From Chlamydiota bacterium (GTDB lineage: Bacteria > Auribacterota > JACPWU01), in the NCBI GenBank assembly GCA_016196885.1, contig JACPWU010000034.1:1-30836 (forward strand): a DNA stretch of 30,836 nucleotides, written 5' to 3'. The position numbers were made by a program, and so were the translations under genes. Below are positions 3,477-30,720 of the stretch, in pieces (position 1 is the first letter of the stretch; the number at the start of each line of letters is the position of its first letter). The notes beneath the pieces are model-generated. The model searched no databases and was not told where the DNA came from. It saw nothing but the letters and a program-made list of their open reading frames with translations.

Positions 3477-4289
3477 TTGTTCAGAAAAAGAATACTCCTT
3501 TATCTTGCTCTTTTGTCTTTAGTGCCTCTTGTTTTCCTAGGCCTTCCTAAGGCTTTTGTTCAGCATTTGAGAAATTCCATGAATAAAATCAGTGTTTCTA
3601 CGCTTGATCTTTCTGAAAAATCTGTTCAGAAATTGAAGAATTTTTGGGGATCTTGGGGGGATGTTCAGCCTCTTCGCGACGAAAATTCGATTCTGAAAAA
3701 CCAGATCGGCCTCTTGAAATTAGAGGTGGACCAGCTCAAAAGTGCCTCTTCGGAAAATGAGAGGCTGCTAAAAATTCTTCATTTTGCCGAGGGCAGTTCT
3801 TGGAATCTCTTGCCTGCTCACGTGATTGGACGATCTCCCAGTCATTGGAATCAAAGTGTGTGGATCAGTGTTGGGGAAAACCAAAGGATTCGCGAAGGAA
3901 TGGCTGTTCTTTCTCCCGATGGGGTGGTGGGGAAAATAGTCGAGGTGATGCCGCAGTGGAGCCGCGTCCTTTTGGTCACAGATGAGAATTGTAAAATGGG
4001 TGTTGTCGCTGAAAGAACCCATGAAATGGGTATTTTGCAGGGATTGGGAGCCAAATGCGTGGTGAATTATTTACCGCGCGAAGCGGAATTAAAATCTGGG
4101 GATCGGATTTTAAGTTCAGGCTTGAGCCGATTTTTTCCAGCCGGTCTTGAAATTGGAAAGGTGATTCGAGTCCAAGACGATGCGTACGGCCTTTTTCAAT
4201 ATGCTGAAGTTTCTCCCAGTGCTCGTTTCGGAAAGTTGGAAGAAGTGCTTGTGATTGTGTCGAAGGAGAAAGAGTATGTGGAAGAATAG
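3477..4289 (+). CDS. mreC: rod shape-determining protein MreC
   Basis: N-terminal TM (ILLYLALLSLVPLVFLGL), coiled coil (LKNQIGLLKLEVDQLKSASSENERL), C-terminal beta domains (GMAVLSPDGVVGKIVEV). Synteny mreB-mreC-mreD. The ORF-track start 3381 lies inside the palindrome; TTG 3477 or CTG 3471 is more plausible, so the start is uncertain. Confidence 0.85.
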   Translation: MFRKRILLYLALLSLVPLVFLGLPKAFVQHLRNSMNKISVSTLDLSEKSVQKLKNFWGSWGDVQPLRDENSILKNQIGLLKLEVDQLKSASSENERLLKILHFAEGSSWNLLPAHVIGRSPSHWNQSVWISVGENQRIREGMAVLSPDGVVGKIVEVMPQWSRVLLVTDENCKMGVVAERTHEMGILQGLGAKCVVNYLPREAELKSGDRILSSGLSRFFPAGLEIGKVIRVQDDAYGLFQYAEVSPSARFGKLEEVLVIVSKEKEYVEE

Positions 4290-4510
4290 AAGACAGAATT
4301 CAGAACTCAGAATTCAGAATAAAAAATTAGGCATATGCACTTGATTCCCCTCAGATAGCAAGAATTTGTAGTCGCCCCATTTATGGGGCAGCCTTGTGCC
4401 CCTTGCATGGATTGCCCGATGAATCGGGCGACTACTAGGGGAATCAAGTGCATATGCCTATAAAAAATAAATAAATAACATCCTTATTATTCTGACTTCT
4501 GACTTCTGTC
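4289..4510. repeat. heptamer-arm hairpin (CAGAAYT units) with a MITE inserted in its loop
   Basis: Left arm GAAGACAGAATTCAGAACTCAGAATTCAGAATAA (4289-4322). Right arm TTATTCTGACTTCTGACTTCTGTC (4487-4510) is its imperfect reverse complement. Loop interrupted by the element at 4329-4459. Confidence 0.75.
4329..4459. mobile_element. MITE-like element, copy 2 (interior inverted relative to copy 1; REPIN-like core 4367-4435)
   Basis: 23-bp perfect TIRs AGGCATATGCACTTGATTCCCCT. Flanking direct repeat ATAAAAAAT (4319-4327 and 4460-4468). Interior is the reverse complement of the copy-1 interior, apart from a ~10-nt indel. Confidence 0.8.
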
Positions 4511-4515
4511 ATTAG

Positions 4516-5007
4516 GTGTTAAACATGCGCTTCATCAAAGAATTGTTATGCGTTTTTGTGGCTGTGATTTTTCAAAGCGAGTGGAGTGTTTTTAGAAGTT
4601 TTGATCTTCTCGCCTTGATTTCTTTTTATTTGATTTCTAAATTTCATTGGCTGGAAGGTGTTTTCTTTGCCCTTTTGGGAGGGATGGTGTGGGATGCCTT
4701 GGCGGGAGGGCCTTGGGGGCTCAAATCTACCAGTCTTCTGGTGGGTGCCTTTGTGATCGGCTTTTTAAATTCTCTTTTTTTTGAAGAGCATTGGTTAACA
4801 CGATTGGGTTTTGTGGGCATCGGCGTCATGAGTGCCTTAACTTTAGAATGGGGTTTTCATCGTCTCATGGATCGGATTTCTCTCCTCTCGCTTTCGCAAA
4901 TTTTCAAAATCAGTGCATGGACAGCCTTTGCAACACTTTTGGTTTATCCGGTGCTAGACCTGTTTTTTGGAGTGCGTGATGCTAAATGGTTGGATGCTCG
5001 AGCGTAG
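4516..5007 (+). CDS. mreD: rod shape-determining protein MreD
   Basis: Polytopic hydrophobic ~160-aa protein directly between mreC and mrdA. Start is GTG 4516 or ATG 4525. The 3' end overlaps the PBP2 start region. Confidence 0.75.
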   Translation: MLNMRFIKELLCVFVAVIFQSEWSVFRSFDLLALISFYLISKFHWLEGVFFALLGGMVWDALAGGPWGLKSTSLLVGAFVIGFLNSLFFEEHWLTRLGFVGIGVMSALTLEWGFHRLMDRISLLSLSQIFKISAWTAFATLLVYPVLDLFFGVRDAKWLDARA

Positions 5008-6745
5008 GCTCTTGTGGTTAAAAATAGCGATGATCGCCGTTTTTATTTTTTTGATGGGTGTCTTTGCTGATGTTCAACTGATTCGCCAGAGCCGTTTTTT
5101 ACAGCTTTCTCAGGAAAATAGAATCCGTCGGGTTTGGATTCCTGCTCCTCGAGGGAAGATTTTAGATCGAAAGGGAGTTCTTTTGGTTGGCAATCGAGCC
5201 AGCTTTGATGTGGCTTTGGATGATAGGGCGCTCAAGGAAAGGAAATCAGCGGTGGCTTTTTTTTCAAGCGTTTTCAATGTGTCGGCGGACGAAATTGAAG
5301 AGACGATTAAAAATCAGCGGGGGCCTGCGTATTTGCCCATCCCCATTAAGAAAGATGTGGACATGGGAGTTTTGACACAAGTTGAAGAATCTCTCCTTCA
5401 AATGCCTTGGGTGACGGTAGAGGTCAATCCGGTGCGCCAATATGTTTTAGGGAAATGTGCGGCGGGCGTCCTGGGATATGTGGGAGCGATCAATCGAACA
5501 CAGTATGAATCTTTGAAGGATTGCGGCTATCATTGGCTGGATGTGATTGGTAAAACGGGTATCGAGAGTGCCTGCGAGGCCTATTTGCGGGGTGAATCAG
5601 GAGGGATGCAAATTGAGGTAGATCATCGGGGACATCGCGAAGAAATCTTGACGATTCAAAAACCGATTCCGGGTCGAGACGTGTATTTGACACTGGATCT
5701 TGAAATTCAAAAGGCATTGGAGGAAGTATTAGAAGGGAAAATCGGAGCTGGGATTGTCATGGATCCTCGGAGTGGGGAACTTCTGGGTGTGGCAAGCTCC
5801 CCTTCTTTTGATCTGAATCTTTTCATCCGACCTGATTTAAGGAAAGAGGCTGTGAAGCTTTTTGTGGATCCCCAGAAACCTTTGGTCAATCGCGCATTTC
5901 AGGGTTTGTATTCACCGGGATCTACTTTCAAATTGGTGGTGGCTTCGGCGGGACTTGATTTAGGTTTGGCTCATTCAGCCACTTCTTTTGAATGCGACGG
6001 GGGGTTGAAAGTGGGGGGGGCTTATTTTCGGTGTTGGAAGGAGGGAGGACACGGAACGGTCACGCTCCGGGAGGCGATTCAGTATTCATGCAATGTATTT
6101 TTTTATCAATTGGGAATGATTTTAGGCCCGGAGAGAATTGCAGAGTATGCACGGCGTTTCGGATTAGGAACGGCGACGGGATTGGATGTGGGTTATGAGA
6201 GAGAGGGATTTATTCCTACTCCTCAGTGGAAGCGTCAGCAGAAAAAAGAGGGATGGTATGGAGGGGACACGGCCAATTTTGCGATTGGACAAGGATTCAT
6301 TTCGGTGACGCCGTTACAAATGGCGGTCTTGACGAGTGCCATCGCAAACGGAGGAAAATGGATGAGCCCCCTTCTTGTGAAAAAGGTCATTCTTCCAGAG
6401 GGGAGAACTTTGTTTGAGGCAAGCCCTCACGTGAAAGGGGATTTGACTTTGCCCCGAGAGGTTCTTGCAGAAATTCAAAAAGGAATGTGGGGGGTGGTGA
6501 ATGATGCGCGTGGGACGGGCCGTTTGGCCTCTCTTCCCAATGTGGAAATTTGTGGGAAGACAGGGACAGCGCAGGTGATGAAAGGAACGGAAGTCACCAA
6601 ACAGGGATGGTTTGTCTCTTATGCCCCCGCGGATCATCCTCGATTTGTTTTGGTCATGCTTGTGGAAGGGGTGTATTCAGGGGGGCAGGATGTGGCACCT
6701 TTAGCGAGAAGGGTGTATGAGCAGTGTTTTAATTATAATCAATGA
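4967..6745 (+). CDS. mrdA: penicillin-binding protein 2 (elongasome transpeptidase)
   Basis: N-terminal TM anchor and PBP dimerisation region. Transpeptidase motifs STFK (SxxK), SCN (SxN) and KTGTA (KTG). Sits upstream of rodA. The start may be ATG 4979 or 4994. Confidence 0.95.
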   Translation: MECVMLNGWMLERRLLWLKIAMIAVFIFLMGVFADVQLIRQSRFLQLSQENRIRRVWIPAPRGKILDRKGVLLVGNRASFDVALDDRALKERKSAVAFFSSVFNVSADEIEETIKNQRGPAYLPIPIKKDVDMGVLTQVEESLLQMPWVTVEVNPVRQYVLGKCAAGVLGYVGAINRTQYESLKDCGYHWLDVIGKTGIESACEAYLRGESGGMQIEVDHRGHREEILTIQKPIPGRDVYLTLDLEIQKALEEVLEGKIGAGIVMDPRSGELLGVASSPSFDLNLFIRPDLRKEAVKLFVDPQKPLVNRAFQGLYSPGSTFKLVVASAGLDLGLAHSATSFECDGGLKVGGAYFRCWKEGGHGTVTLREAIQYSCNVFFYQLGMILGPERIAEYARRFGLGTATGLDVGYEREGFIPTPQWKRQQKKEGWYGGDTANFAIGQGFISVTPLQMAVLTSAIANGGKWMSPLLVKKVILPEGRTLFEASPHVKGDLTLPREVLAEIQKGMWGVVNDARGTGRLASLPNVEICGKTGTAQVMKGTEVTKQGWFVSYAPADHPRFVLVMLVEGVYSGGQDVAPLARRVYEQCFNYNQ

Positions 6746-6753
6746 CGAGGTTC

Positions 6754-6880
6754 AAATAAAAATGTCCAATTTCAAATGACAAATAAATAACCAATGTCCA
6801 ATTTTCAATGATTCAACTCTTGGTAAATTGGCTATTGGAAATTGATTTGTCATTTGTTCATTGGGAATTTGTCATTTAAA
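6754..6880. repeat. heptamer-arm hairpin (AATGTCC/CAAATGA units) between mrdA and rodA
   Basis: A/T-rich 7-nt periodic tract AAATGTCCAATTTCAAATGACAAATAAATAACCAATGTCC..., mirrored by ...GGAAATTGATTTGTCATTTGTTCATTGGGAATTTGTCATTT. Related to the element at 18961-19055. Confidence 0.65.
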
Positions 6881-6893
6881 AAAGGGTTTTAAA

Positions 6894-7976
6894 ATGCTTT
6901 CAACTCGAGATTTGAAGCTTCTTGATTTCAGATTAATTTTTGTGGTTTGCCTTCTTTTGGGGGTCGGGCTTCTCTTTATTTACAGCGCTACTTTTCAAGA
7001 AGGACAACCGATTCACATGCTTTACAAGCAGCTTCTTTTTGTGGGCGTGGGCGCAATTGTTTTCTGGTTTGCATTGAACATGGATTTTAGGATTTTAGGG
7101 TCCATGTCGTATTTCTTTTATTTTGCGAGTTTGTGGGTGCTTGTTTGGGTGCTGGTATCAGGTGCGCTTCATCAAGGGGCCAAGAGTTGGTTTGATCTGG
7201 GTCCTTTTTCTTTTCAGCCCTCAGAACTTGCAAAGGTAGGGATTATTTTTATGCTGGCGCGTTTTCTATCCGAACATGCGCAAAAGAGAGAAACTTTTAA
7301 GTATGTGATGATTCCCATCATTTTGACGGGTCTTCCGATGGCCTTGATTATTAAGCAGCCGGATTTGGGGACGGCCATGGTTCTTGTTCCCGTTCTTTTT
7401 GGGATGCTTTTCACGGCAGGGGTTCGTAAGAGATATCTTTTCGCAGTCATTGCCCTGGGGCTGATTGCGCTCCCCGTGGGTTGGAGTTTTCTTCATCAAT
7501 ATCAGCGTCAAAGGCTTTTGGTTTTTCTGAATCCCAACATGGATCCCTTGGGTGCCGGTTACAATGCGATTCAGTCTAAGATCGCCATTGGATCTGGTGG
7601 ATTGTGGGGGAAGGGATGGTTGGAAGGGACTCAGAGTCAGTTGCATTTTCTGCCCGAGCGTCATACGGATTTTATTTTTTCAGTCTTGGGAGAGGAATGG
7701 GGTTTTGTCGGTTGTTTTTCAGTTTTGTTGATTTACCTTTTTGTGATTTTGTCAGGTTTAAGAATTGCGAGAGATTCGGGAGATCTTTTTGGCCGATATC
7801 TCTCCATAGGACTTGTTCTGATGCTGGCTTCGCATGTTGTGATCAACACGGGTATGACGGTGGGTGTGATGCCCATCACAGGGATCCCTTTGCCCTACTT
7901 AAGTTATGGCGGATCTCATTTGATGACCGTGATGGCCAGCCTTGGATTTTTGGAGAATGTTCAATTAAGAAAATGA
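6894..7976 (+). CDS. rodA: SEDS-family peptidoglycan glycosyltransferase RodA
   Basis: ~10 TM segments. FtsW/RodA/SpoVE signatures (QPSELAKV, ERHTDFIFSVLGEEWGF, PLPYLSYGGS). ATG 6894 chosen because the tracked TTG 6861 lies inside the upstream hairpin. Confidence 0.95.
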   Translation: MLSTRDLKLLDFRLIFVVCLLLGVGLLFIYSATFQEGQPIHMLYKQLLFVGVGAIVFWFALNMDFRILGSMSYFFYFASLWVLVWVLVSGALHQGAKSWFDLGPFSFQPSELAKVGIIFMLARFLSEHAQKRETFKYVMIPIILTGLPMALIIKQPDLGTAMVLVPVLFGMLFTAGVRKRYLFAVIALGLIALPVGWSFLHQYQRQRLLVFLNPNMDPLGAGYNAIQSKIAIGSGGLWGKGWLEGTQSQLHFLPERHTDFIFSVLGEEWGFVGCFSVLLIYLFVILSGLRIARDSGDLFGRYLSIGLVLMLASHVVINTGMTVGVMPITGIPLPYLSYGGSHLMTVMASLGFLENVQLRK

Positions 7977-8065
7977 CTCACCTCGGGATTCATCCCGAGG
8001 TGAGTCATCCCGAGGAAGGGCTCCCCGACGTATGTCGGGGAGCCTGACGAGGGATCTTGTTTTTT
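7973..8065 (+). terminator. double stem-loop after rodA with a distal T-run (possible terminator or attenuator)
   Basis: 17-bp perfect palindrome ATGACTCACCTCGGGAT/ATCCCGAGGTGAGTCAT (7973-8008, overlaps the rodA stop). 11-bp stem GGCTCCCCGAC-GTAT-GTCGGGGAGCC (8019-8044). The T-run at 8057-8065 is not adjacent to a stem, so this is not a canonical terminator. Confidence 0.4.
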
Positions 8066-8072
8066 CGAAAGG

Positions 8073-9611
8073 ATGATTATGGGAAAAGAAATTATCATTA
8101 ACAGTGAAGGAAGAGAAAATAGAATTGCGTTTTTAGAGGAAGGACATTTGGAGGATTTTGCCATTGAACGGGAGGCCGATAAAAGATTGGTCGGCAGCGT
8201 CTACAAAGGGATTATTGAGAATGTAGTACCCGGGATTCAAGCAGCTTTTGTAAATGTGGCTCTGGAAAAAAATGGATTTCTGCATGTATCCGACATCATC
8301 AATCCCAATGAATCTTACCGGGATATTTTGGATGAGGAAATCGAAGAGGAGCATGAGGGAGAGGCGGCCGAGGCAAATTTTGCACATGCCAGTCCTGAGA
8401 AGCTTTCGAAGAAGGCTACCATTGATGAATTGGTGAAACCCAATCAGGAGGTGGTAGTCCAGGTGATTAAAGATCCCATCGGAACGAAGGGTGTGAGGCT
8501 TTCGACCAACATCAGTCTTCCGGGTCGATACCTGGTGATGCTGCCCAATGATCCCCGTCGAGGTATTTCTCGGCGCATTGCCGACAAGGTAGAGCGGGCA
8601 CGGCTGCGTGAAATTTTGTGGTCGCTGAGGGTCCCTGAAAACATTGGCATCATCATTCGCACGGCGGGTGAACAGATGCATAAGAAATATTTCATTCGCG
8701 ACATTCGGTATTTGCTCAGCCTTTGGAAGAGGATCGAACGCCGCAAGAACGAGTTGACAGCGCCCAACTGTCTTCATACGGAACTGGACATTGTTCTCAA
8801 GACGGTTCGCGATGGCTTCACGGAATCTATTGAGAAACTGGTCGTAGATTCTCGGGATGAATTTCGAAAGATCCGAAGATTTGTCGGTGCGGTGCTTCCT
8901 CGGCTGCGTTCGAAGGTTGAGCTTTATACAGGGATTGAACCTGTTTTCGAACACATGGGGATTGAAAAAGAGATTAAGAAAATTTTTGATCGCAAGGTCT
9001 GGTTAAAAACGGGGGGCTATCTCATCATCGAACAGACCGAGGCCTTGGTTGCCATTGATGTTAATTCGGGAAGAAATGTGGGAAAGAATGATTTGGAAGA
9101 AACCATTCTGGAAACCAACATGGAGGCGGTTGAGGAGATTGCCAAGCAATTGAGACTTCGCAACATTGGTGGCATTGTCATCATTGATCTCATTGACATG
9201 AAGTCCCGTCGCAATCAAATGAAGGTCCTTCAGAAACTGAGAAATTGTCTTCGCAAAGACAAGGCCAAAACGAATATTCTCCCCATCAGTGAAATTGGGC
9301 TTGTTGAAATGACGCGCCAGAGAGTTCAGGAAAGTGCGAATAAGGCGCTTTATGAAACATGTCCCATCTGCTCGGGGAGAGGAAGCATCAAGTCCAGCAC
9401 CAGTGTGATTTTGGAGGTCTTGAGAGAGGTGAAAACCATCGTGGCCAAGAAAAAAGTGGAATCTGTAAAATTGGTACTTCATCCCAAAGTGGCGGATAAA
9501 TTAAAAGAAGACAAAATGCTTTCTTCTCAATTGGAAAAAAGCGTCAAAAACAGTTTCAGCGTGGAACGGGATCCGGAACTGCATTTGGATGATTATAGAA
9601 TTGTATACTAA
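8073..9611 (+). CDS. rng: ribonuclease G (RNase E/G family)
   Basis: S1 domain (VGSVYKGIIENVVPGIQAAFVNV), catalytic AIDVNSG motif and CPICSGRG zinc-link. At 512 aa it fits RNase G rather than RNase E. Sits after the mre/mrd genes, as in many bacteria. Confidence 0.9.
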   Translation: MIMGKEIIINSEGRENRIAFLEEGHLEDFAIEREADKRLVGSVYKGIIENVVPGIQAAFVNVALEKNGFLHVSDIINPNESYRDILDEEIEEEHEGEAAEANFAHASPEKLSKKATIDELVKPNQEVVVQVIKDPIGTKGVRLSTNISLPGRYLVMLPNDPRRGISRRIADKVERARLREILWSLRVPENIGIIIRTAGEQMHKKYFIRDIRYLLSLWKRIERRKNELTAPNCLHTELDIVLKTVRDGFTESIEKLVVDSRDEFRKIRRFVGAVLPRLRSKVELYTGIEPVFEHMGIEKEIKKIFDRKVWLKTGGYLIIEQTEALVAIDVNSGRNVGKNDLEETILETNMEAVEEIAKQLRLRNIGGIVIIDLIDMKSRRNQMKVLQKLRNCLRKDKAKTNILPISEIGLVEMTRQRVQESANKALYETCPICSGRGSIKSSTSVILEVLREVKTIVAKKKVESVKLVLHPKVADKLKEDKMLSSQLEKSVKNSFSVERDPELHLDDYRIVY

Positions 9612-9695
9612 CGAACAGCGTATAGCGTACAGCGTTCAGTTTATAAGGAGTTGATTTGTTTTTACTGACCGCTAAACGCTGTACGCTGAACGCTA
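9612..9695. repeat. heptamer-arm hairpin, NNAGCGT subfamily, between convergent rng and the histidine kinase
   Basis: Arms ACGAACAGCGTATAGCGTACAGCGTTCAG and CTGACCGCTAAACGCTGTACGCTGAACGCTA. Loop contains TTATAAGGAGTT. The right arm supplies the kinase stop codon (CTA 9693-9695). Confidence 0.8.
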
Positions 9696-10976
9696 TTTCT
9701 TTAATTTATTCTCCGCCTCTCGAATCAGTTCGATTTGGTTTTTCCCGTCTTCGGGGTAGGTTACGACGGAGGTTTTAAATTCCAAGGTGGAGGGGATGTG
9801 AGATTTAAGGGTTTCTCGAATACGAGATTCCATGACAGAGCTCCCCGATTTATCCGTTTTGGCCAGGACCATGATGTATTCTGCCGCATGGTATTTGAGA
9901 AGCGCATCTCCCGAACGCAAACGGCTGCGTATTTTTTCTTCTAAATTAAGGGCCCATTCTCTTTTCAGGGGATGAGAAGCGTCTGTATCCTGGGGGGTCT
10001 TTTCCACATTAATCAAAAGAAGAGAAAGTTTTTCGTCACGGGCTGTGGCTTGAATCAAGGCCTCTTCCAGAAGGTCATGGAATTGAAGATCAGAATTAAA
10101 AATCGGAAGGGCGAATGTAAAATTGCTTCCCACCCCTAATTCGCTTTCAGCCCAGATTGTCCCATGATGTTGTTCCACAATCGCCTTGCATATCGTAAGG
10201 CCCAGACCCATGCCTTTCCCGATGGCTTCCGATCCAGGAGCGACTGGATTATGCACTTGAACAAATTTATCGAAAATATCTACCAATTTGTCTTTGGGAA
10301 TCCCGCAGCCGTTATCAATGACTTGAATTTCCAGAAAATCTGGTTTCTTTTTGATTTGGATTTTGACGAGACCCTTCTCACGAGGTACATTTTTTAATGC
10401 ATTTCCCATAAGATTGACCAGAACTTGAATGATGCGTGTGGGGTCACAAAAGATGGGGGGGATCTCTTCTTGAGAAGAGGGAAGTTCAACTTTAATCCCT
10501 TGTCGTTCGAAAAGGGTTCTGAGAGATTGCGCCGCTTCATAAATGAGCGTCACGACATTCTGTTTTTCCCGGTGAATTCTCATTTTCCCGGATTCAAGCT
10601 TGGAAATATCTAAAAGTTCTTTGGTGAGGGTGATCAGACGTTCGATATTGCTTTTTGCGATCACCAAATAATCCTGAGTTTCTTGCCCCACTTCTCCAGT
10701 GCCATCCTCGAGGAGGGAGGAAATACATTCTCTCAAGACAGCCAGCGGGGTTCTCAGCTCATGGCTTGCCACAGAAATGAAATCTGACTTAAGCTGATCC
10801 ATGCGGAGCAGTTTTTCGCTCTTTTCTTGAAGCTTCTGATTTTTCTCGACGAGATCGTTGGTGAGCTGGTGGAGGAGGGTGCGGGTCTTTTGTAATTCCT
10901 CATGCTCGACGAGAAAACCCCGCATTTGTTTCTTGAGAGACTCCAGTTCACTTTTCCTTTTCCGAAACGAAAACAT
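9693..10976 (-). CDS. soluble sensor histidine kinase with a C-terminal degenerate GGDEF domain
   Basis: Coiled-coil N-terminus, H-box SHELRTPL, and N/G boxes (NLMGNALKN, DNGCGIP, GMGLGLTICK). The C-terminal ~130 aa align to the GGDEF fold, with RSGD-ALLKY-HAAEY. ATG at 10976 is preceded by GAGGGG; the tracked start 11039 lies in a repeat. Confidence 0.9.
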   Translation of the reverse strand: MFSFRKRKSELESLKKQMRGFLVEHEELQKTRTLLHQLTNDLVEKNQKLQEKSEKLLRMDQLKSDFISVASHELRTPLAVLRECISSLLEDGTGEVGQETQDYLVIAKSNIERLITLTKELLDISKLESGKMRIHREKQNVVTLIYEAAQSLRTLFERQGIKVELPSSQEEIPPIFCDPTRIIQVLVNLMGNALKNVPREKGLVKIQIKKKPDFLEIQVIDNGCGIPKDKLVDIFDKFVQVHNPVAPGSEAIGKGMGLGLTICKAIVEQHHGTIWAESELGVGSNFTFALPIFNSDLQFHDLLEEALIQATARDEKLSLLLINVEKTPQDTDASHPLKREWALNLEEKIRSRLRSGDALLKYHAAEYIMVLAKTDKSGSSVMESRIRETLKSHIPSTLEFKTSVVTYPEDGKNQIELIREAENKLKK

Positions 10977-11191
10977 GAAGCCCCTCTTTAAAATACAATT
11001 TAATTTCAATGACCCTTTTGTGGAGGCCATCGTGTGCAATGAAAGCCCCGCCTGCCTCTATCTCACCTCGCCCCTCCCTTATTTTGTAGTCGCCCCATTT
11101 ATGGGGCTGCCCGATGAATCGGGCGACTACACAAGCTTGAACGAGAGAGAGGAATCCAACATCCATCATCCATGATTCATCATCCACTTTC
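10977..11191 (-). repeat. copy 1 of a ~190-215 nt repeated leader block upstream of the kinase gene (contains the REPIN-like core)
   Basis: The reverse complement of 11085-11191 matches 27862-27968 with 3 mismatches in 107 nt. The remainder down to the start codon is diverged but alignable, including a conserved hairpin (11007-11032). Confidence 0.75.
11085..11131. repeat. REPIN-like doublet (two inverted GTAG-hairpin modules)
   Basis: TGTAGTCGCCCCATTTATGGGGC-T-GCCCGATGAATCGGGCGACTACA. The outer 9-bp stem TGTAGTCGC/GCGACTACA encloses two 6-bp-stem hairpins. Confidence 0.85.
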
Positions 11192-11237
11192 ACCTGAAAA
11201 TAGTCTTTAGTCATTCTTATACAATGACTCATGATAG

Positions 11238-11315
11238 CTTGTAGTCGCCCGATTTATCGGGCAATGCCCAATACCCCAATGTCATAGACCGCCCCATAAA
11301 TGGGGCGACTACAAG
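11238..11315. repeat. REPIN-like doublet with a 27-nt spacer
   Basis: CTTGTAGTCGCCCGATTTATCGGGC ... GCCCCATAAATGGGGCGACTACAAG. Confidence 0.85.
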
Positions 11316-11330
11316 GGTGATTGAGATACA

Positions 11331-11387
11331 CTTTGATTTTTGATTTGTCATTTTAATTTTTGATCTTTGGATTTTGATTTCTATTTT
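11331..11387. repeat. unpaired TTTTGAT heptamer tract upstream of pilB
   Basis: CTTTGATTTTTGATTTGTCATTTTAATTTTTGATCTTTGGATTTTGATTTC. Resembles the right arm of the hairpin at 13206-13240. Confidence 0.6.
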
Positions 11388-11408
11388 CCACTACCCACAC
11401 AAGATTTA

Positions 11409-11438
11409 ATGACTGAGAAACTAAACATATGCTATCAT
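11409..11438 (+). promoter_or_regulatory. candidate promoter for pilB (ATGACT -35, 18-nt spacer, extended -10 TGcTATCAT)
   Basis: Hexamers read from sequence. pilB ATG 11463 has no obvious SD, so a short leader is plausible. Confidence 0.25.
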
Positions 11439-11462
11439 CATTCTAACTGAATCTTCTCCCGT

Positions 11463-13139: not shown

Positions 13140-13142
13140 AGA

Positions 13143-13240
13143 AAATATCAAAAATCAAAAATCAAAATGCAAAATGAAGGAGTTTATTTATTAAATTCTT
13201 CCTTAATTTTGATTTTTGATATTTGATTTTTGGATTTTTT
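13143..13240. repeat. heptamer-arm hairpin (ATCAAAA/TTTTGAT units) between pilB and pilC
   Basis: Arms AAAATATCAAAAATCAAAAATCAAAATGCAAAAT and ATTTTGATTTTTGATATTTGATTTTTGGATTTTTT. Loop contains GAAGGAGTTTAT. Confidence 0.75.
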
Positions 13241-13251
13241 AGGGGTCAAAT

Positions 13252-14472: not shown

Positions 14473-14507
14473 CATATTTGTTTGCAATAGGTTGCGTCCT
14501 TTTTTGT

Positions 14508-14536
14508 TTGACAAAAGGTTTTTTAGATGGTAGGTT
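14508..14536 (+). promoter_or_regulatory. candidate sigma70-type promoter for the pilin gene (TTGACA, 17-nt spacer, TAGGTT)
   Basis: Perfect -35 at 14508-14513. The -10 at 14531-14536 keeps T1, A2 and T6. Lies ~50 nt upstream of the pilin ATG. Confidence 0.35.
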
Positions 14537-14585
14537 AACATATGGAATGGGAATGCGCTTCAACCTAAATAAAAAAGGGGGAGCG

Positions 14586-18951: not shown

Positions 18952-18960
18952 ATAAATGAT

Positions 18961-19387: not shown

Positions 19388-19463
19388 TAACTCCCCCAGC
19401 CCCTCTTAAATAAGAGGGGAGAAAACCCTTCTCCGATGTGACATCGGAGGAGTTGGAGGGGTT
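19388..19463. repeat. C-rich Y-shaped palindromic element, copy 2
   Basis: TAACTCCCCCAGCCCCTCTTAAATAAGAGGGGAGAAAACCCTTCTCCGATGTGACATCGGAGGAGTTGGAGGGGTT. Confidence 0.75.
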
Positions 19464-23019: not shown

Positions 23020-24707
23020 TGAGGAAAACCCTCGTGATGTTGTGCGTCATCCTAGGGATGGTTTCAACGATGGGGAAGGCCGCCGATGAAAAGCTTCAGC
23101 ATCAGGCATCTTTGGTGACTTTAGATTTCAAAGAGGCGGATTTGGAAAATGTTTTGAGGCTTCTCTCGGATCAATATGGTGTGAACGTTGTTGCGGGAGA
23201 GGAAGTGCATGGAAAAGTCACCGTACATCTGGAAAATGTCACGATGGAGGGGGCGTTAAAGGCTATTTTAGGGGCCAATGGCTACGGCTATGTCTCAGAT
23301 GGAAATATTTTTCGTGTTGCCCCTTTAGCCCAACTGGCCGATGAGGAAAAGACGCGCAAAGAATTAGAGGGATATGAAGGCGTGGTATCCGAAGTTATTT
23401 TACTTCATTATTTAGATGCCCAAGATGCAAAGAAAGTTTTAAGGGGACTTCTTTCTTCTCACGGTTTGATCAAGGTATTAGAACGCAAAACCCTTCCTGG
23501 ATGGCAAATCACGGGCGTGGCAGGGGGGACGGGGTTTTCAAGTTCTACGTCTTCTTCTACGAGCGGGACTTATTCTAATATGGCTAACATTTCCAATCTT
23601 GTCGGAAAAAGAACTCAGCCCGTGGAGACCTACGAACGCTCCCGGACTCTTCTCATCACAGATACGTCTAAAAAAATTCAGTTGATTAAAGAGGTTTTGG
23701 AAAAATTGGATGTGCCTCCTCAACAGGTGATGATTGATGCCATGGTGGTAGAATTGGCATTGTCAAACACGGAAGATTTGGGTCTGCGTTGGGATAGCCT
23801 CGAGGGATGGGAAATCAGTGCTGCTCCGAGCCGTACACTCACAGATGAATTCACTAAAAAAGCGGACTCTTCTGATGACTTAAGCTCGAGTGTGGATGAG
23901 GGCCTAGAGACCTCAAGGGTGAGGACGATTAACAATTTGAGTGGGAATGCGAGCTCAGATGTGACCACCAAAACGGGGGAGACAACGACGGCGACCACTG
24001 AAACGCATGATGCCTCCCATAGTAAAAGCAGAATTTTTACAGACTTGAGATCAGTGGTGCTTTCGGCGGATGAATTAAAAGTAGTTTTAAGTGCCTTGGC
24101 CAAAAAAGGAGATGTAGACGTGATTTCAAGTCCCAATGTTCTGACCTTGGACAATCACGAGGCCACGATTCTGGTGGGTGAAAATTTCCCTATTTTCACA
24201 ACCTCTGTCTCAGATCAAGGAACGGTGACAGAATCCTTTGATTATTATCAACCGGTTGGCATCAGTTTGCGTGTGATTCCTCAAGTTTCCGCCCATTCCC
24301 ATATTAACATGTTGATTCATCCTTCGATCAGTGAGATTGGCGAGTTTGTCACGGGAACGACGGGGTTAAAATATCCGAGAATCAACATTCGTGAGGCAGA
24401 CACACAGGTCTTGATTCAAGAAGGACAGACCGTAGTGATCGGGGGATTGGTGACCGGGCGCGATGAAGAGGTGGTGACACGCGTCCCTTTCTTGGGGGAT
24501 ATTCCCATCTTGGGGCTTGCCTTTCGCCATAAAAGCATTGTGAAAAAGAAAGTGAATCTATTGGTCTTTGTCACCCCTCGGTTGGTAAAACCAGATGAAA
24601 TATCAGAACAGGAAAGCCGTGTGTTTAAATATTATTTGAAGTACAAGAAAATCCAGGACGAAAAGAAAAGGGCAAAACCGAAGAAGTTTTTCTCACCACC
24701 GTTTTAG
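23019..24707 (+). CDS. pilQ: secretin (PilQ/GspD family)
   Basis: Signal peptide, N0-like domain (VTLDFKEADLENVLRLLS...GNIFRVAP) and secretin core (VISSPNVLTLDNHEATILVG; VPFLGDIPILGLAFRHK...LLVFVTPRLV). Ser/Thr-rich low-complexity stretches are present. Confidence 0.9.
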   Translation: MRKTLVMLCVILGMVSTMGKAADEKLQHQASLVTLDFKEADLENVLRLLSDQYGVNVVAGEEVHGKVTVHLENVTMEGALKAILGANGYGYVSDGNIFRVAPLAQLADEEKTRKELEGYEGVVSEVILLHYLDAQDAKKVLRGLLSSHGLIKVLERKTLPGWQITGVAGGTGFSSSTSSSTSGTYSNMANISNLVGKRTQPVETYERSRTLLITDTSKKIQLIKEVLEKLDVPPQQVMIDAMVVELALSNTEDLGLRWDSLEGWEISAAPSRTLTDEFTKKADSSDDLSSSVDEGLETSRVRTINNLSGNASSDVTTKTGETTTATTETHDASHSKSRIFTDLRSVVLSADELKVVLSALAKKGDVDVISSPNVLTLDNHEATILVGENFPIFTTSVSDQGTVTESFDYYQPVGISLRVIPQVSAHSHINMLIHPSISEIGEFVTGTTGLKYPRINIREADTQVLIQEGQTVVIGGLVTGRDEEVVTRVPFLGDIPILGLAFRHKSIVKKKVNLLVFVTPRLVKPDEISEQESRVFKYYLKYKKIQDEKKRAKPKKFFSPPF

Positions 24708-24708
24708 G

Positions 24709-24800
24709 GATAGCGTACAGCGGTTAGCGTTCAGCGTGCAGAAAAAACCAACTCCTTACAAACTGTCCGCTATACGCTGGCCGCTGAACGCTATTTTTTT
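24709..24800 (+). terminator. heptamer-arm hairpin (NNAGCGT subfamily) followed by T7: likely intrinsic terminator of the pilus operon
   Basis: Arms GATAGCGTACAGCGGTTAGCGTTCAGCGTGCAG and CTGTCCGCTATACGCTGGCCGCTGAACGCTA, then TTTTTTT (24794-24800). The right arm supplies the stop codon of the convergent receiver gene. Confidence 0.7.
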
Positions 24801-25276: not shown

Positions 25277-26212
25277 ATGTTAGAAAACAAAATTCATAAA
25301 GTTCTCATTCTGGGCTCGGGGCCTGCGGGACTCACGGCCTCTATTTACGCAGGAAGGGCGAATCTTGCCCCTGTGGTGGTAGAAGGGACTCAGCCGGGCG
25401 GGCAGCTGACCATTACCACGGACGTAGAAAATTATCCGGGGTTTCCAGAGGGGATTCAAGGGCCTGAACTCATGGTTCTTTTTCGAAGGCAGGCCGAGCG
25501 ATTTGGCACGACTTATGTGTCCGGAGATATCACGGCCATTGATTTAAAGAAGCGCCCTTTTACGGTTTTCTTAGAAGGTTCGGAACTTAAAACAGAGACT
25601 TTAATTGTTTCAACGGGAGCTTCAGCGAAGCTTTTGGGAATTCCATCTGAAAAAAAATTGATGGGACATGGGGTATCGGCATGTGCCACTTGCGACGGTT
25701 ATTTCTTTCGAGGGAAAGAAATTGCTGTCGTGGGAGGGGGAGACACCGCGATGGAAGAGGCAAATTTTCTCACGCGATTCTGCTCCAAGATAACAGTGAT
25801 TCATCGTAGAGATCAGTTGAGGGCATCTAAGATTATGCAAGAACGCGCCTTTAAAAATCCCAAAATTGATTTTATCTGGAACGCGGCTGTGGAAGAAATA
25901 TTGGGAGAACCTGCAAGCGGCGTTCAAGCCCTTCGTCTTAGGGATACAAAAGAGAATCGTGTTTATGAAAAATCCTTTCAAGGAGTGTTTGTTGCGATTG
26001 GGCATGAACCCAACACACGCTGGTTTAAAGGGCAATTGGATTTAGATGACAAAGGCTATATGAAAACGAAAAAGGGTTCTACCGAAACCAATGTTGCCGG
26101 AGTCTTTGCGGCAGGAGACGTTCAGGATCATAAGTATCGCCAAGCCGTTACTGCAGCAGGTAGTGGGTGCATGGCCGCGATGGATGCGGAGAAATTCTTA
26201 GAACAGTTTTAG
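25277..26212 (+). CDS. trxB: thioredoxin-disulfide reductase
   Basis: FAD site GSGPAGLTASIYAGRA, redox-active CATCDG, NADPH site GGGDTAMEEA, and GVFAAGDV. ATG 25277 has AAGGA 5 nt upstream; ATG 25271 is an alternative. Confidence 0.95.
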   Translation: MLENKIHKVLILGSGPAGLTASIYAGRANLAPVVVEGTQPGGQLTITTDVENYPGFPEGIQGPELMVLFRRQAERFGTTYVSGDITAIDLKKRPFTVFLEGSELKTETLIVSTGASAKLLGIPSEKKLMGHGVSACATCDGYFFRGKEIAVVGGGDTAMEEANFLTRFCSKITVIHRRDQLRASKIMQERAFKNPKIDFIWNAAVEEILGEPASGVQALRLRDTKENRVYEKSFQGVFVAIGHEPNTRWFKGQLDLDDKGYMKTKKGSTETNVAGVFAAGDVQDHKYRQAVTAAGSGCMAAMDAEKFLEQF

Positions 26213-26270
26213 GTTTTGAGTTTTGGATTTTGAGTTTTTAACCCAAAACCCAAAACCCAAAACTCAAAAT
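26212..26270. repeat. heptamer-arm hairpin (GTTTTGR / CCCAAAA units) between convergent trxB and the DHH gene
   Basis: GGTTTTGAGTTTTGGATTTTGAGTTTTT / AACCCAAAACCCAAAACCCAAAACTCAAAAT. Confidence 0.8.
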
Positions 26271-26281
26271 TTAAGACTGCC

Positions 26282-27742: not shown

Positions 27743-27756
27743 ATCAAAATGGGATC

Positions 27757-27853
27757 ACTCCCCCAACCCCTAACTCCCCAGGCCCCTCTTACCTTAAGAG
27801 GGGGTATTGATGAAAGAGGGGGTATTGTTTTAAGAGGGGAGAAAACCCTCCCC
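27757..27853. repeat. C-rich palindromic element, copy 3 (partly duplicated)
   Basis: ACTCCCCCAACCCCTAACTCCCCAGGCCCCTCTTACCTTAAGAGGGGG...TTTTAAGAGGGGAGAAAACCCTCCCC. Confidence 0.7.
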
Positions 27854-27861
27854 TTTGTTAT

Positions 27862-28047
27862 GAAAGTGGATGATGGATCATGGATGATAGATGATGGATT
27901 CCTCTCTCTCGTTCAAGCTTGTGTAGTCGCCCGATTCATCGGGCAGCCCCATAAATGGGGCGACTACAAAAAAAGCATGATGGGAAGAACTTTCATCGCA
28001 CACGATGATCTCGAAAGATCATCGAAATTTATATGAAAGGGCTAACC
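27862..28047 (+). repeat. copy 2 of the repeated leader block, upstream of the flavin reductase gene
   Basis: GGATGAT heptamer tract (27868-27900), REPIN-like core (27922-27968) and a conserved hairpin CGATGATCT-CGAA-AGATCATCG (28003-28024), ~23 nt before ATG 28048. Confidence 0.75.
27922..27968. repeat. REPIN-like doublet
   Basis: TGTAGTCGCCCGATTCATCGGGCAGCCCCATAAATGGGGCGACTACA. Identical to the reverse complement of 11085-11131. Confidence 0.85.
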
Positions 28048-28521: not shown

Positions 28522-28543
28522 AAAACAGCCGTGGGCCTTGAGG

Positions 28544-28592
28544 ATTGAGTCGTGAGTGAAAAATCATACCTATAAAACTCACGCCTCACGCC
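28544..28592. repeat. short heptamer-arm hairpin (GAGTCGT / CTCACGC units)
   Basis: ATTGAGTCGTGAGTG ... ACTCACGCCTCACGCC. The loop GAAAAATCATACCTATAAA resembles the loop at 30670-30687. Confidence 0.6.
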
Positions 28593-28612
28593 TAATTTCG
28601 GACACAAATCCT

Positions 28613-28849: not shown

Positions 28850-28922
28850 GGCGGCGTACCCAAGTGGTTAAGGGAGCAGTCTGCAAAACTGCGATTCACC
28901 GGTTCGAATCCGGTCGCCGCCT
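28850..28922 (+). tRNA. tRNA-Cys (anticodon GCA)
   Basis: Cloverleaf folded by hand: acceptor GGCGGCG/CGCCGCC, anticodon arm GCAGT-CTGCAAA-ACTGC, T arm ACCGG-TTCGAAT-CCGGT, discriminator U. CCA is encoded at 28923-28925. Confidence 0.9.
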
Positions 28923-28930
28923 CCATTTAA

Positions 28931-29052
28931 AGCAGGGTTTAGGGCATAGGGTGTAGGGGAAAAGCAGGGCTTAGGGTGTAGGGCATAGGGGGTTCCTATT
29001 AATTGAAATCATTACTACCCTAATCCCTAAACCCTAAGCCCTGTGCCCTGCT
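28931..29052. repeat. heptamer-arm hairpin (NNTAGGG / CCCTAAN units) between the two tRNA genes
   Basis: Left arm is duplicated: AGCAGGGTTTAGGGCATAGGGTGTAGGGG and AGCAGGGCTTAGGGTGTAGGGCATAGGGGG. Right arm is CCCTAATCCCTAAACCCTAAGCCCTGTGCCCTGCT. Confidence 0.8.
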
Positions 29053-29058
29053 TTTGAA

Positions 29059-29142
29059 GCCGGAGTGGTGGAATGGCAGACACAAGGGACTTAAAATCCC
29101 TCGGCTGAATAAGCCGTGCCGGTTCGAGTCCGGCCTCCGGCA
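29059..29142 (+). tRNA. tRNA-Leu (anticodon UAA), long variable arm
   Basis: Acceptor GCCGGAG/CTCCGGC, anticodon arm AGGGA-CTTAAAA-TCCCT, variable arm CGGCTGAATAAGCCG, T arm GCCGG-TTCGAGT-CCGGC, discriminator A. CCA is not encoded. Confidence 0.9.
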
Positions 29143-29566: not shown

Positions 29567-29568
29567 GA

Positions 29569-29651
29569 CAGTACATCGTTCAACGAACATCGTACATCGT
29601 TCTGCCTCTATAGGGTTTTACGAAGTACGATATACGATGCACGAAGTACGG
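29569..29651. repeat. heptamer-arm hairpin (ACATCGT / ACGAWGT units)
   Basis: CAGTACATCGTTCAACGAACATCGTACATCGTTC versus TACGAAGTACGATATACGATGCACGAAGTACGG (about 24 of 33 positions pair), followed by TTTT. Confidence 0.65.
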
Positions 29652-29672
29652 TTTTAAAACAAGGAGGAGGTT

Positions 29673-29906: not shown

Positions 29907-29909
29907 ATA

Positions 29910-29993
29910 ACGGACAGCGTTTAGCGTGCAGCGTTCAGAAAGAATGAATCAGCTCCTTATAAACTGACCGCTGACCGCTGTACGCTAAACGCT
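29910..29993. repeat. heptamer-arm hairpin, NNAGCGT subfamily, third copy
   Basis: ACGGACAGCGTTTAGCGTGCAGCGTTCAG ... loop with CAGCTCCTTATAAA ... CTGACCGCTGACCGCTGTACGCTAAACGCT. Confidence 0.8.
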
Positions 29994-30076
29994 TCTTGGT
30001 TATTCATCAAAATTCATTGACATTCAGAGGTCCCAATGCAATCATCTAAAAAAATGTAGGAGGCTAGAGTTAGAAA

Positions 30077-30625
30077 ATGACATCTCCCTTTGTTCCAAAG
30101 AAAGTTTTTTTTACCAATGGTGTGGGTTCTCACAAAGAAGAGTTGAGGTCTTTCGAGCTTGCCTTGAGAGATGCAGGTGTTGAAAAATGTAATTTGGTTC
30201 ATGTCTCTAGCATTTTGCCTCCCTATTGTAAAATCATTCCAAAGAAGCAGGGTGTGCAGGAACTTTATCCGGGTATGGTGACTTATTGCGTGATGGCCCA
30301 ATGTCGGAGCAATGAGCCCAATCGTTTGATCGTGTCTTCTGTCGGTTGCGCCGTTCCGATGGATAAGGGAATGTATGGGTATTTAAGCGAGCATCACGCC
30401 TATGGCCAGACAGAGAAATTTGCCAGTGATTATTCAGAAGATTTGGCTGCGGCTATGCTTGCGTCTACTTTGGGTCTTGAATTTGATGAGACGAAAGGGT
30501 GGGATGAACAAAAAGAACTTTATCACCTCAGTGATAAAATTGTCCGCTGTACCAATGTGACTCAGTCAGCCATTGTGAAAAATGGTTGGACGACGGTGGT
30601 CTCCGCAGCAATTTTCTTGTTCTAA
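30077..30625 (+). CDS. pdaD: pyruvoyl-dependent arginine decarboxylase
   Basis: PdaD-family sequence: PKKVFFTNGVGSHKEELRSFELALRDAGVEKCNLVHVSSILPP, with the Ser-Ser self-cleavage site. 182 aa. Confidence 0.9.
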   Translation: MTSPFVPKKVFFTNGVGSHKEELRSFELALRDAGVEKCNLVHVSSILPPYCKIIPKKQGVQELYPGMVTYCVMAQCRSNEPNRLIVSSVGCAVPMDKGMYGYLSEHHAYGQTEKFASDYSEDLAAAMLASTLGLEFDETKGWDEQKELYHLSDKIVRCTNVTQSAIVKNGWTTVVSAAIFLF

Positions 30626-30627
30626 TT

Positions 30628-30720
30628 GAGTAAAAACCTGTTGTGAGGGGTAAGGGATGAGTGGTGAGTAAAAATAAAACCTTCAAAACTCACCCCTCAC
30701 CCCTCACCCCTGTTTTACTC
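30628..30720. repeat. heptamer-arm hairpin (GAGGGGT / CCCTCAC units) after pdaD
   Basis: GAGTAAAAACCTGTTGTGAGGGGTAAGGGATGAGTGGTGAGT ... ACTCACCCCTCACCCCTCACCCCTGTTTTACTC. Confidence 0.8.

Follow-up and report, generated by a model that had tools for sequence, protein, structure and literature searches.

Among the intergenic tandem repeats of prokaryotes, a period of seven is reported to be the most abundant, and there is 'no clear clue' to what such heptamers do (PMC6344855). They are not limited to heterocystous cyanobacteria, their over-representation having been found for many bacteria by Mrazek (2007, cited in PMC4692102). In Xanthomonas, two GGGAATC arrays in convergent orientation and able to form stem-loops were reported in 70 and 75 cases (PMC4692102, Rehm et al. 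2015), and TAACTGA heptamer repeats are described from Beggiatoaceae, cyanobacteria and Bacteroidetes (PMC4679880, MacGregor 2015). The intervening sequence (IVS) in the 23S rRNA of Coxiella has a 28-bp terminal stem, cut in the middle by RNase III, and (GACAGAT)x3 immediately ahead of its S23p open reading frame (ORF) (PMC4990558). Here we analyse twelve intergenic hairpins with arms of tandem heptamers in a 30,836-bp stretch of DNA assigned to a Chlamydiota bacterium (contig JACPWU010000034.1 of assembly GCA_016196885.1; this whole stretch is called the window). A preliminary description of the hairpins held the STRR repeats of heterocystous cyanobacteria to be their only analogue and knew of no described family; this does not stand, as PMC6344855, PMC4692102 and PMC4990558 all describe related repeats. 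The window hairpins are not categorically new, since intergenic heptamer repeats are known and widespread, if still unexplained. The window presents a dense form of these: about 40% of all junctions with a gene 3' end have a hairpin, some of them inserted where relatives have stop/start overlaps in the mreBCD-mrdA-rodA cell-shape operon. We give about even credence to the interpretation that they are ORF-less, IVS-like selfish stem-loops with tandem-heptamer arms, which would be tolerated between cistrons as RNA hairpins. We propose to call them 'IVS-like heptamer hairpins', on this interpretation ORF-less members of a putative class of intercistronic stem-loop DNA elements.

The period of seven dominates the repeats of the window. 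Tandem Repeats Finder (TRF) gave more than 25 period-7 arrays, present at every locus listed in the preliminary description, and a lag-identity scan gave 17 tracts of period 7 and 12 of period 14 (twice seven), against a single tract of period 12 and none of periods 2-6, 8-11 or 13. The units have four to five conserved and two to three variable positions in strict 7-nt phasing. When the minimum free energy (MFE) of each locus was compared with 200 dinucleotide shuffles, all 12 paired loci gave long hairpins of 53-219 nt with z between -4.5 and -13.8, and none of the 200 shuffles folded equally well. Between the arms, complementarity is high in register 0 and when shifted by +/-7 or +/-14, but it is low when the shift is +/-1 to 3. 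The claims of at least 12 intergenic hairpins with degenerate 7-mer arms, each arm matched by its own reverse complement and folding better than shuffled sequence, are thus confirmed, as is the unpaired state of the tract at 11331-11387 (z +0.2). The listing of a fivefold GGATGAT repeat as a hairpin locus was mistaken, since the two tracts belong to a 115-nt dispersed repeat and have no local partner. No Rfam family matches any of the hairpins.

The stems start between -9 and +19 nt (median 2 nt) from the end of the preceding gene, taken as its stop codon or the end of the tRNA, and occupy the whole junction. All 12 hairpins sit where the junction includes a gene 3' end, and by our own count these make up 12 of about 29 such junctions. 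Convergent junctions have a hairpin in three out of three cases (rng/histidine kinase (HK), pilQ/response regulator and trxB/DHH), divergent junctions in none out of three. The reported proximity to stop codons and the occurrence both inside operons (mreC/mreD, mrdA/rodA, pilB/pilC) and between convergent genes were therefore borne out. The individual features are as follows, with a strand only where one applies. For five hairpins the interval listed is the one folded, and the features themselves lie at 13141-13240, 24709-24795, 28541-28593, 28929-29055 and 29910-29993.

4289-4510: whole hairpin at mreC/mreD, z -13.8.
4290-4327: 5' arm of the mreC/mreD hairpin, CAGAAYT units, period 7 in TRF, starting 2 nt past the mreC stop and pairing with 4484-4510 in the MFE structure.
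4328-4460: miniature inverted-repeat transposable element (MITE) nested in the loop of the mreC/mreD hairpin, with perfect 24-nt terminal inverted repeats (TIRs; TAGGCATATGCACTTGATTCCCCT) and a REPIN-like double hairpin inside.
4461-4510: remaining loop of the mreC/mreD hairpin (A-rich, then ACATCCTTATTATT) and its 3' arm of TTCTGAC units, from the MFE structure.
6746-6893: insertion of 148 nt at mrdA/rodA that holds the next hairpin; to judge from relatives, the ATGA stop/start overlap is ancestral.
6754-6880: hairpin at mrdA/rodA, AATG type (AATGTCC/CAAATGA), z -5.6, identical in an independent assembly.
9612-9697: hairpin at the convergent rng/HK junction, NNAGCGT family, z -6.2, with the exact loop motif on the - strand, identical in the independent assembly.
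11152-11187, - strand: GGATGAT-type tract in the 115-nt dispersed repeat, not a hairpin arm, no local pairing partner.
11331-11387, + strand: unpaired TTTTGAT-type tract 5' of pilB (TRF), z +0.2.
13141-13241: hairpin at pilB/pilC, ATCAAAA/TTTTGAT, loop ATGAAGGAGTTTATTTATTAA, z -6.7.
18953-19055: hairpin 3' of the NHL-repeat gene, AATGAC/CAATG units, z -4.8.
24707-24795: hairpin at the convergent pilQ/response regulator junction, NNAGCGT family, z -7.2, with the exact loop motif.
26204-26279: hairpin at the convergent trxB/DHH junction, GTTTTGR/CCCAAAA, z -10.4, with the trxB stop codon within the first unit.
27866-27900, + strand: GGATGAT-type tract, second copy in the 115-nt dispersed repeat (blastn).
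28540-28596: hairpin 3' of the flavin reductase gene, GAGTSGT/CTCACGC, z -5.1.
28927-29056: hairpin at tRNA-Cys/tRNA-Leu, NNTAGGG/CCCTAAN, z -4.5, with a duplicated 32-nt 5' arm (TRF period 32 x2 and period 7).
29567-29653: hairpin 5' of the small Lrp-like ORF, ACATCGT/TACGANN, z -5.1.
29908-29995: hairpin 3' of the Lrp-like ORF, NNAGCGT family, z -6.7, loop motif with one mismatch.
30628-30720: hairpin 3' of the arginine decarboxylase gene, GTGAGGG/CTCACCC, z -6.4.

In the tRNA-Cys/tRNA-Leu hairpin (28934-28990 and 29017-29042) there are seven GGG runs at 7-nt spacing on the + strand, which like the Xanthomonas repeats have G-quadruplex potential. On the other side, the arm CCCTAAA/CCCTAAG corresponds to the plant-type telomere unit, most likely by coincidence.

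That the hairpins are assembly artefacts of a metagenome-assembled genome (MAG) has a practically negligible probability. Contigs do break at repeats, the contig of the Logan assembly that was compared ends inside a MITE and inside a REPIN, and many homologues of S23p lie on very short contigs. Against this, the independent Logan assembly of SRR12113387 (L120) is 100% identical to the window over the 6.7 kb from 4434 to 11102, two hairpins included, and an artefact is excluded on that ground, the refuting case foreseen in the preliminary description. Five other MAGs or assemblies moreover contain hairpins of the same kind, as do complete plasmids and an rRNA operon, and the reading frames that flank the hairpins are intact.

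Comparison with related assemblies shows that the heptamer hairpins are lineage-specific insertions set exactly at gene boundaries, with rapid gain and loss among relatives. Five related assemblies were used; a search with RNase G gave four loci (L034, L036, L037 and L038) and one with TrxB gave two (L121 and L122), one of these from the same sample as L036. The relatives from the RNase G search share about 70% amino acid identity with the window over PBP2 and RNase G. At mrdA/rodA, stop and start codons overlap as ATGA in L036, L037 and L038 and are separated by an 8-nt gap in L034; the window keeps the ATGA, followed by 148 extra bases before the rodA ATG. At mreC/mreD there is an overlap or a gap of at most 9 nt in L034, L037 and L038, compared with 236 nt in the window. 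L036 has a hairpin of its own at this junction, with another heptamer (CTTTGNN) and an A-rich...CCTTGG loop, while its closest relative L038 (83% amino acid identity) has none. Because the heptamer differs and the closest relative lacks a hairpin, the mreC/mreD junction was hit independently in the window and in L036.

The turnover extends to other junctions. At trxB/DHH, L122 has an ordinary GC hairpin in place of the heptamer hairpin of the window, an exchange that we count in favour of insertion of IVS-like elements. The relatives have heptamer hairpins at junctions of their own: at parE/DHH and after the flavin reductase gene in L121, in L122, and at the pilin genes of L036. The loop core of the hairpin at 13143 recurs in a non-orthologous hairpin of L121, and CGATTCA arms are found at two loci from one sample, SRR22387960. 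At pilB/pilC, the one orthologous pair compared, a hairpin of TTTTGAT type is present both in the window and in L034, with unrelated loops. Here the heptamer type is kept and the loop is not, contrary to the general rule of free arms around a conserved loop given in the preliminary description.

TrxB ends in ...FLEQF* in the window (26204-26212), with the last two codons and the stop inside the first heptamer, and the C-terminal tails of the relatives (P0242-P0253) are longer and variable (...YLEAKE, ...YLEEHKS). Local seeding was considered for trxB and rejected, since these tails are variable; there seems to have been no conserved tail from which the array could grow, and the array seems to stand in its place. 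In L121 (6931-7365) the last ~50 nt of trxB and ~90 nt downstream form a direct repeat of two copies with ~115 nt between them. A relBE/parE toxin-antitoxin pair lies just downstream of the second copy of the trxB end; it is absent from the window and from L122.

A PilB search of genome contigs gave no close relative (best 50%), and its matches from other phyla served as controls. Some of these control contigs have heptamer repeats themselves: L033 (Saccharibacteria, 9855-16045) has three paired heptamer hairpins at gene ends, L021 (Paceibacterota, 1734-3595) has complementary heptamer tracts 0.9-1.8 kb apart around fpg alone and around fpg with ruvA, and heptamer tracts occur also in L029 (Armatimonadota) and L032 (Parcubacteria).

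The same positions bear on the possibility that the hairpins terminate or attenuate transcription, as Rho-independent or bidirectional elements that would set operon boundaries and expression ratios within operons. The median start 2 nt past stop codons, the hairpins at all three convergent junctions, the classical GC hairpin at trxB/DHH in L122 and the T-rich tails that follow the stems at rng/HK, pilQ/response regulator and lrp/argDC are all in line with such a role. However, two terminator scans detected none of the heptamer hairpins, and most of these lack a U tract: T-rich tails follow 3-5 of the 12, and a + strand tail with at least five T in eight bases is found at three of the 12. The stems, at 25-45 bp and often AU-rich, also differ from the short G+C-rich stems of intrinsic terminators, and relatives do without hairpins at the same junctions. 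Since hairpins lie between two tRNAs and also between genes whose stop and start codons form ATGA overlaps in relatives (mreC/mreD, mrdA/rodA), a plain intrinsic terminator is unlikely as a general explanation, as the preliminary description had already argued; at convergent junctions it may apply. As an account of the whole set we consider terminators or attenuators decidedly unlikely.

A link to the IVS was found at one of the relatives. In L034 (20325-20915) a gene for a 122-aa PF05635 protein lies between (ATGTGTA)n and (TACACAT)n at cheB/cheA in a chemotaxis operon. PF05635 (TIGR02436) is the '23S rRNA IVS protein', or S23p, a four helix bundle. The family is related to Avd, the accessory protein of diversity-generating retroelements, and the Pfam bAvd family gave a weak match to one S23p homologue. 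Twenty PF05635 homologues were aligned and used in one metagenome scan, which gave 80 loci (L039-L118). A period-7 tract was present within 250 nt upstream of the gene at 57 of these, downstream at 60 and on both sides at 50, and the density of such tracts was 3.34 per kb near the S23p gene and 0.28 per kb farther off. Over these loci there were 180 tracts of period 7 and at most 21 of any other period. In 58 of 75 loci the two flanks of a gene contained a stretch complementary at no fewer than 20 of 24 positions; none of 38 displaced controls did, and among cross-locus pairs 29 of 225. The 5' arm reaches and often includes the ATG, and the 3' arm begins directly past the stop codon. Most close S23p homologues lie on very short contigs, as expected of repeat-flanked multi-copy genes.

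Matches in a plasmid database (L123-L128) agree with the metagenome loci, with period-7 tracts on both sides of the S23p gene in five of six. The two sides are mutually reverse-complementary in Azospirillum lipoferum, Nostoc ATCC 53789, Calothrix PCC 7716 and Geminocystis, and the S23p gene of A. lipoferum lies inside 23S rRNA according to Rfam. In Pseudanabaena the arrays are long and direct, inverted copies being located farther upstream, and Picosynechococcus has shorter inverted GGAGATA repeats under the detection threshold. Cassettes of this kind were also found within operons, at gatA/gatB and purE/larC (L129), proA/nadD (L130), cas10/cmr3 (L125) and cas6/cas4 (L126), and the intercistronic cassettes are oriented like the flanking genes. 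These comparisons show one common arrangement around PF05635 genes, whether these lie in metagenomes, on cyanobacterial plasmids or within a true 23S rRNA IVS: a 5' heptamer arm, the gene, and a 3' arm that is the reverse complement of the first. Outside the window, a link between S23p/IVS genes and heptamer hairpins is thus well supported. We found no description of a general association of PF05635 with heptamer arms beyond Coxiella in the literature searched, the coverage of which is incomplete, and present it here as new.

The heptamer consensus covaries with the similarity of the S23p proteins (Spearman -0.40; none of 2000 permutations in a Mantel test), which means that the gene and its arms are passed on as one unit. 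The covariation has also to be weighed for a different explanation, in which the heptamers are binding arrays for a heptamer-reading protein, either an S23p/Avd-like four-helix bundle or a cold-shock-type OB-fold with about one heptamer each, that would regulate post-transcriptionally or at the DNA level. The strict 7-nt phasing of units with 4-5 conserved and 2-3 variable positions would fit such arrays, and the T-rich units GTTTTGA and CATTTTG resemble the preferred Csp heptamer. CspB is cited as binding heptamer repeats with one protein per unit (PMC4679880). We nevertheless consider this explanation highly unlikely, as many unrelated heptamer types occur in one 30-kb stretch, the window lacks an S23p gene, and the covariation is equally well explained by joint inheritance of gene and arms.

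Locus L129 provides a possible bridge to hairpins that lack a gene. Two ORF-less hairpins there, at 2116-2257 (z -9.9) and 7008-7152 (z -5.7), have the same TGTGTAA/TTACACA arms as the S23p cassette at 9951-10440. Hairpins and cassette share a non-repetitive inner boundary, AATTTTCC[AG]TTACAC, which in the cassette comes after the stop codon, and the hairpin loops begin with ATG and purine-rich codons like S23p genes. Because arms, inner boundary and loop start all match those of S23p cassettes, the two hairpins look like internal-deletion (MITE-like) derivatives of the cassette.

The loops and heptamer types of the window show how far the hairpins form families. The preliminary description stated that the 7-mer differs at each locus, and many types are indeed present, most of them in single copy; within the 30 kb, though, NNAGCGT recurs at three loci, TTTTGAT at two and the AATG type at two, with TTTTGAT again at pilB/pilC of L034. 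The 3' arm units of four heptamer types are visibly related (CTGACCG, CTGACTT, CTCACGC and CTCACCC). As for the loop motif said to be shared by several hairpins, AACTCCTTAYAAAC with at most one mismatch is confined to the three NNAGCGT copies, one of them inverted, and at three mismatches it is not enriched in loops. What remains of that claim is a looser core, AACTCYTT, which is enriched (4 of 19 occurrences in 118 kb fall in loops, which make up less than 1% of that sequence), and some hairpins of different types with related loops or proximal units. Judged as MITEs, the hairpins have terminal inverted repeats in the arms themselves, and several dispersed copies with a common non-repetitive core are found for the NNAGCGT family alone. 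The NNAGCGT copies differ in the number and order of their units. The loop sequence ATG AAR GAG, found in the 13143 hairpin and in L121, resembles the purine-rich 5' ends of S23p genes, which is suggestive only. AAGGAG in the loops was also considered as a Shine-Dalgarno sequence and ruled out, because no start codon lies at a proper distance downstream.

The hairpins occur as dispersed families in both orientations, with other small mobile elements nested inside. A repeat of 115 nt with 96.5% identity in blastn (11078-11192 and 27975-27861) is present as inverted copies 16.7 kb apart and holds a REPIN-like double hairpin. Among further small repeats, a MITE with TIRs of 24-31 nt (TAGGCATATGCACTTGATTCCCCT) has two copies, at 1530-1690 and 4328-4460, that enclose a REPIN-like doublet, and REPIN-like double hairpins (GTAGTCGCCCnATTnATnGGGC and an inverted partner) occur five times in 30 kb, at 1560-1634, 4368-4435, 11082-11134, 11238-11315 and 27919-27971. 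Small dispersed repeats embedded in heptamer repeats were reportedly noted by Elhai in 2008. No RAYT/TnpA gene or other transposase or insertion sequence gene was found among the annotated ORFs of the window.

Two heptamer-free insertions were also observed, one of 181 nt at mreB/mreC (3292-3472) with perfect 24-bp TIRs, where relatives have about 2 nt, and one of 228 nt with 23-nt repeats between two pilin genes (15508-15735). The mreC ORF with a TTG start, 302 aa compared with ~272-275 aa in relatives, probably reads through the 181-nt element. A hairpin of CCCCTCTTAnnTAAGAGGGG followed by AGAAAACCCT recurs at 19395-19440, at 27775-27850 and in the relative L036 at 16320-16350, and a 95-aa ORF at 27749-28036, made of CCCCTCTTAnnTAAGAGGGG/AGAAAACCCT repeats, is probably spurious. 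The tract at 11331-11387 upstream of pilB resembles by eye the sequence at 13285-13345 upstream of pilC in L034 (TTTGATTTTTGRTTTGTCATTTT...). The T-rich TTTTGAT tract may be a dispersed heptamer module placed before pil genes.

The simplest alternative to a mobile origin is that the repeats are by-products of simple sequence grown in place, in which slippage with a 7-nt bias expands local seeds at gene ends and neither mobility, nor a link to S23p, nor function is involved. Heptamers are the commonest intergenic tandem period in prokaryotes and polymerase slippage has been proposed for them (PMC6344855, PMC4692102). Such growth would also account for the apparent seeding at the mreC end and for that seen when L036 is set beside L038, for the trxB stop codon inside the first unit, for the varying number and order of units among copies of one family, and for the existence of an unpaired tract at 11331-11387. 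It does not readily explain why three NNAGCGT copies at unrelated loci and in both orientations share a non-repetitive loop, why a loop core is common to the window and a non-orthologous hairpin of L121, or why the ORF-less hairpins of L129 and the S23p cassette have a non-heptamer boundary in common. Slippage alone moreover makes no reverse-complement arm. We judge growth in place to be unlikely, and give the same low weight to the accompanying proposal that inverted pairs persist merely because palindromes self-correct.

We return to the interpretation of the hairpins as IVS-like selfish elements, for which the following course can be proposed. The window hairpins may have arisen in a MITE-like manner, as deletion derivatives or relatives of S23p cassettes. 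Replication slippage would then add or remove 7-nt units in their arms, and these could stay complementary because each palindrome can serve as the template for its own repair, by intrastrand template switching. Being co-transcribed with the flanking genes, the hairpins would fold into imperfect RNA stems, of a length that would suit cleavage by RNase III or a putative barrier to 3' exonucleases. Cutting of the stems by RNase III, or a role of the stems as 3' hairpins, might explain why insertions are tolerated between tRNAs and where relatives have stop/start overlaps. Insertion may thus be nearly neutral or mildly regulatory, uncoupling or stabilising the neighbouring cistrons, and at convergent junctions the hairpin may substitute for a terminator hairpin. 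Occurrence inside operons has precedents in REP, Correia and IVS-type elements: REP elements of Escherichia coli stabilise upstream mRNA inside operons, and the Correia hairpins of Neisseria are RNase III substrates.

Several observations weigh against this interpretation. No PF05635 gene was detected in the window by tblastn, no S23p homologue other than that of L034 was found in loci L001-L038, and none of the heptamers of the S23p arms occurs as a tandem in the window. The loops of the window hairpins do not have the length needed to prove that the hairpins descend from a cassette with a gene. A clear target-site duplication was not seen; at mrdA/rodA, AATG alone is common to both sides, and it could be required for the stop and start codons. 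Apparent local seeds are present at the mreC end (GAAGAAT, next to CAGAATT units) and in the L038 spacer GCTTTTGCA when compared with the L036 unit GCTTTGC, and because some arms look seeded from local sequence in this way, growth in place is favoured over transposition at these points. In the register test, offsets of +/-7 score nearly as high as 0, so that arms copied unit by unit as mirror images are not distinguished from independent arrays. Fold energies of the two strands (G-U versus A-C) are inconsistent, the + strand being better at four loci and the - strand at one, and do not demonstrate selection at the RNA level. The unit length of 7 nt is not explained by a selfish IVS-like origin either, candidates being a slippage bias and binding by a four-helix-bundle protein.

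It is tempting to go further and to regard heptamer-armed hairpins, possibly with STRR and other intergenic heptamers, as ORF-less derivatives of undescribed but widespread intercistronic, IVS-type selfish cassettes, with a full-length form made up of a tandem-heptamer arm, a PF05635 gene and the reverse-complement arm, in which the S23p protein acts on, or is specific for, its own arrays and the long stem lets the transcript shed the insert. We put this forward tentatively, as possible but on the doubtful side.

The window itself is largely a + strand region with mreB, mreC, mreD, mrdA, rodA, rng, pilB, pilC and pilin genes, followed by genes for an NHL-repeat protein, a parA-like protein, pilM/O-like proteins, pilQ, trxB, a Nudix protein, flavin reductase, tRNA-Cys and tRNA-Leu. 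A small Lrp-like ORF and then a pyruvoyl arginine decarboxylase gene are the 3'-most. The HK, response regulator and DHH phosphoesterase genes lie on the - strand. The gene identities checked (mreB/C/D, mrdA, rodA, rng, pilB, pilC, pilQ, trxB and others) agree with those given previously; the database entry for TrxB has 311 aa from a later start codon, compared with the 328-aa ORF of the window. An Rfam scan of the window gave two tRNAs only (28850-28925 and 29059-29142). The first 11.3 kb of the window are identical to the NCBI MAG contig JACOUD010000016 (GCA_016178005.1, 'Chlamydiae bacterium'), with RNase G matching at 100%. Source-named matches outside the window's own cluster of about 80% identity include MAGs of the PVC group (Planctomycetes-Verrucomicrobia-Chlamydiae; Auribacterota and Verrucomicrobiae) and of Omnitrophica.

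The hairpins have practical consequences, as they break assemblies and distort gene calls where spurious ORFs cross repeat regions. The PF05635 link gives a handle on the heptamer puzzle, since it covers PVC- and Omnitrophota-type metagenomic loci, cyanobacterial plasmids, rRNA IVS and nearby ORF-less copies. If it is causal, the heptamer question becomes experimentally testable through array binding, RNase III processing and genome-wide co-occurrence.

Set against the described systems, the window hairpins share with the TAACTGA repeats that they are intergenic tandem heptamers, in that case of 2-6 units, with a patchy cross-phylum distribution and relatives that lack them at the same junction. 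The TAACTGA repeats are, however, direct repeats of one unit that lie mostly just upstream of start codons, with one inverted case, and no TAACTGA tandem occurs in the window. The STRR of heterocystous cyanobacteria are likewise intergenic tandem heptanucleotides of several families (STRR1 CCCCAGT, STRR2 TTGGTCA and STRR3 CAACAGT), and tandems of these three units have no occurrence in the window. STRR are described as direct arrays in a cyanobacterial host, whereas the window has paired hairpins in a host of the PVC group; STRR and the inverted heptamers that flank S23p genes of Nostoc and Calothrix may be the same phenomenon.

The REP/BIME/REPIN elements and Correia MITEs resemble the window hairpins as short palindromic intergenic elements that are co-transcribed in operons and lie at gene 3' ends, in many copies and both orientations and with nesting, but they have a fixed consensus without 7-nt periodicity and are tied to RAYT/TnpA or to TA target duplications. 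The Xanthomonas pairs are also convergent heptamer arrays close together, intergenic and capable of forming stem-loops, which vary in length and keep their position between related species, and those of X. axonopodis pv. citri are mostly transcribed. They differ in having one G-rich unit genome-wide (GGGAATC/GGGANTN, with G-quadruplex potential), where the window has many mostly AT-rich types, some of which share a loop. There is no GGGAATC tandem in the window, and its G-run types are those at 28929-29055 and 30628-30720 only.

The 23S rRNA IVS differs from the window hairpins in its location in helix 9, 25 or 45 of 23S rRNA; the window hairpins have no ORF, lie between protein-coding and tRNA genes, and have heptamers other than those of the sampled S23p arms. 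In other respects the two can be compared closely. Like the window hairpins, the 23S rRNA IVS of Coxiella and Leptospira form an extended stem-loop from complementary termini where a transcript break is tolerated, and are sporadic among relatives, and the IVS/S23p cassettes have inverted heptamer arms in common with the window hairpins, both inside and outside rRNA.

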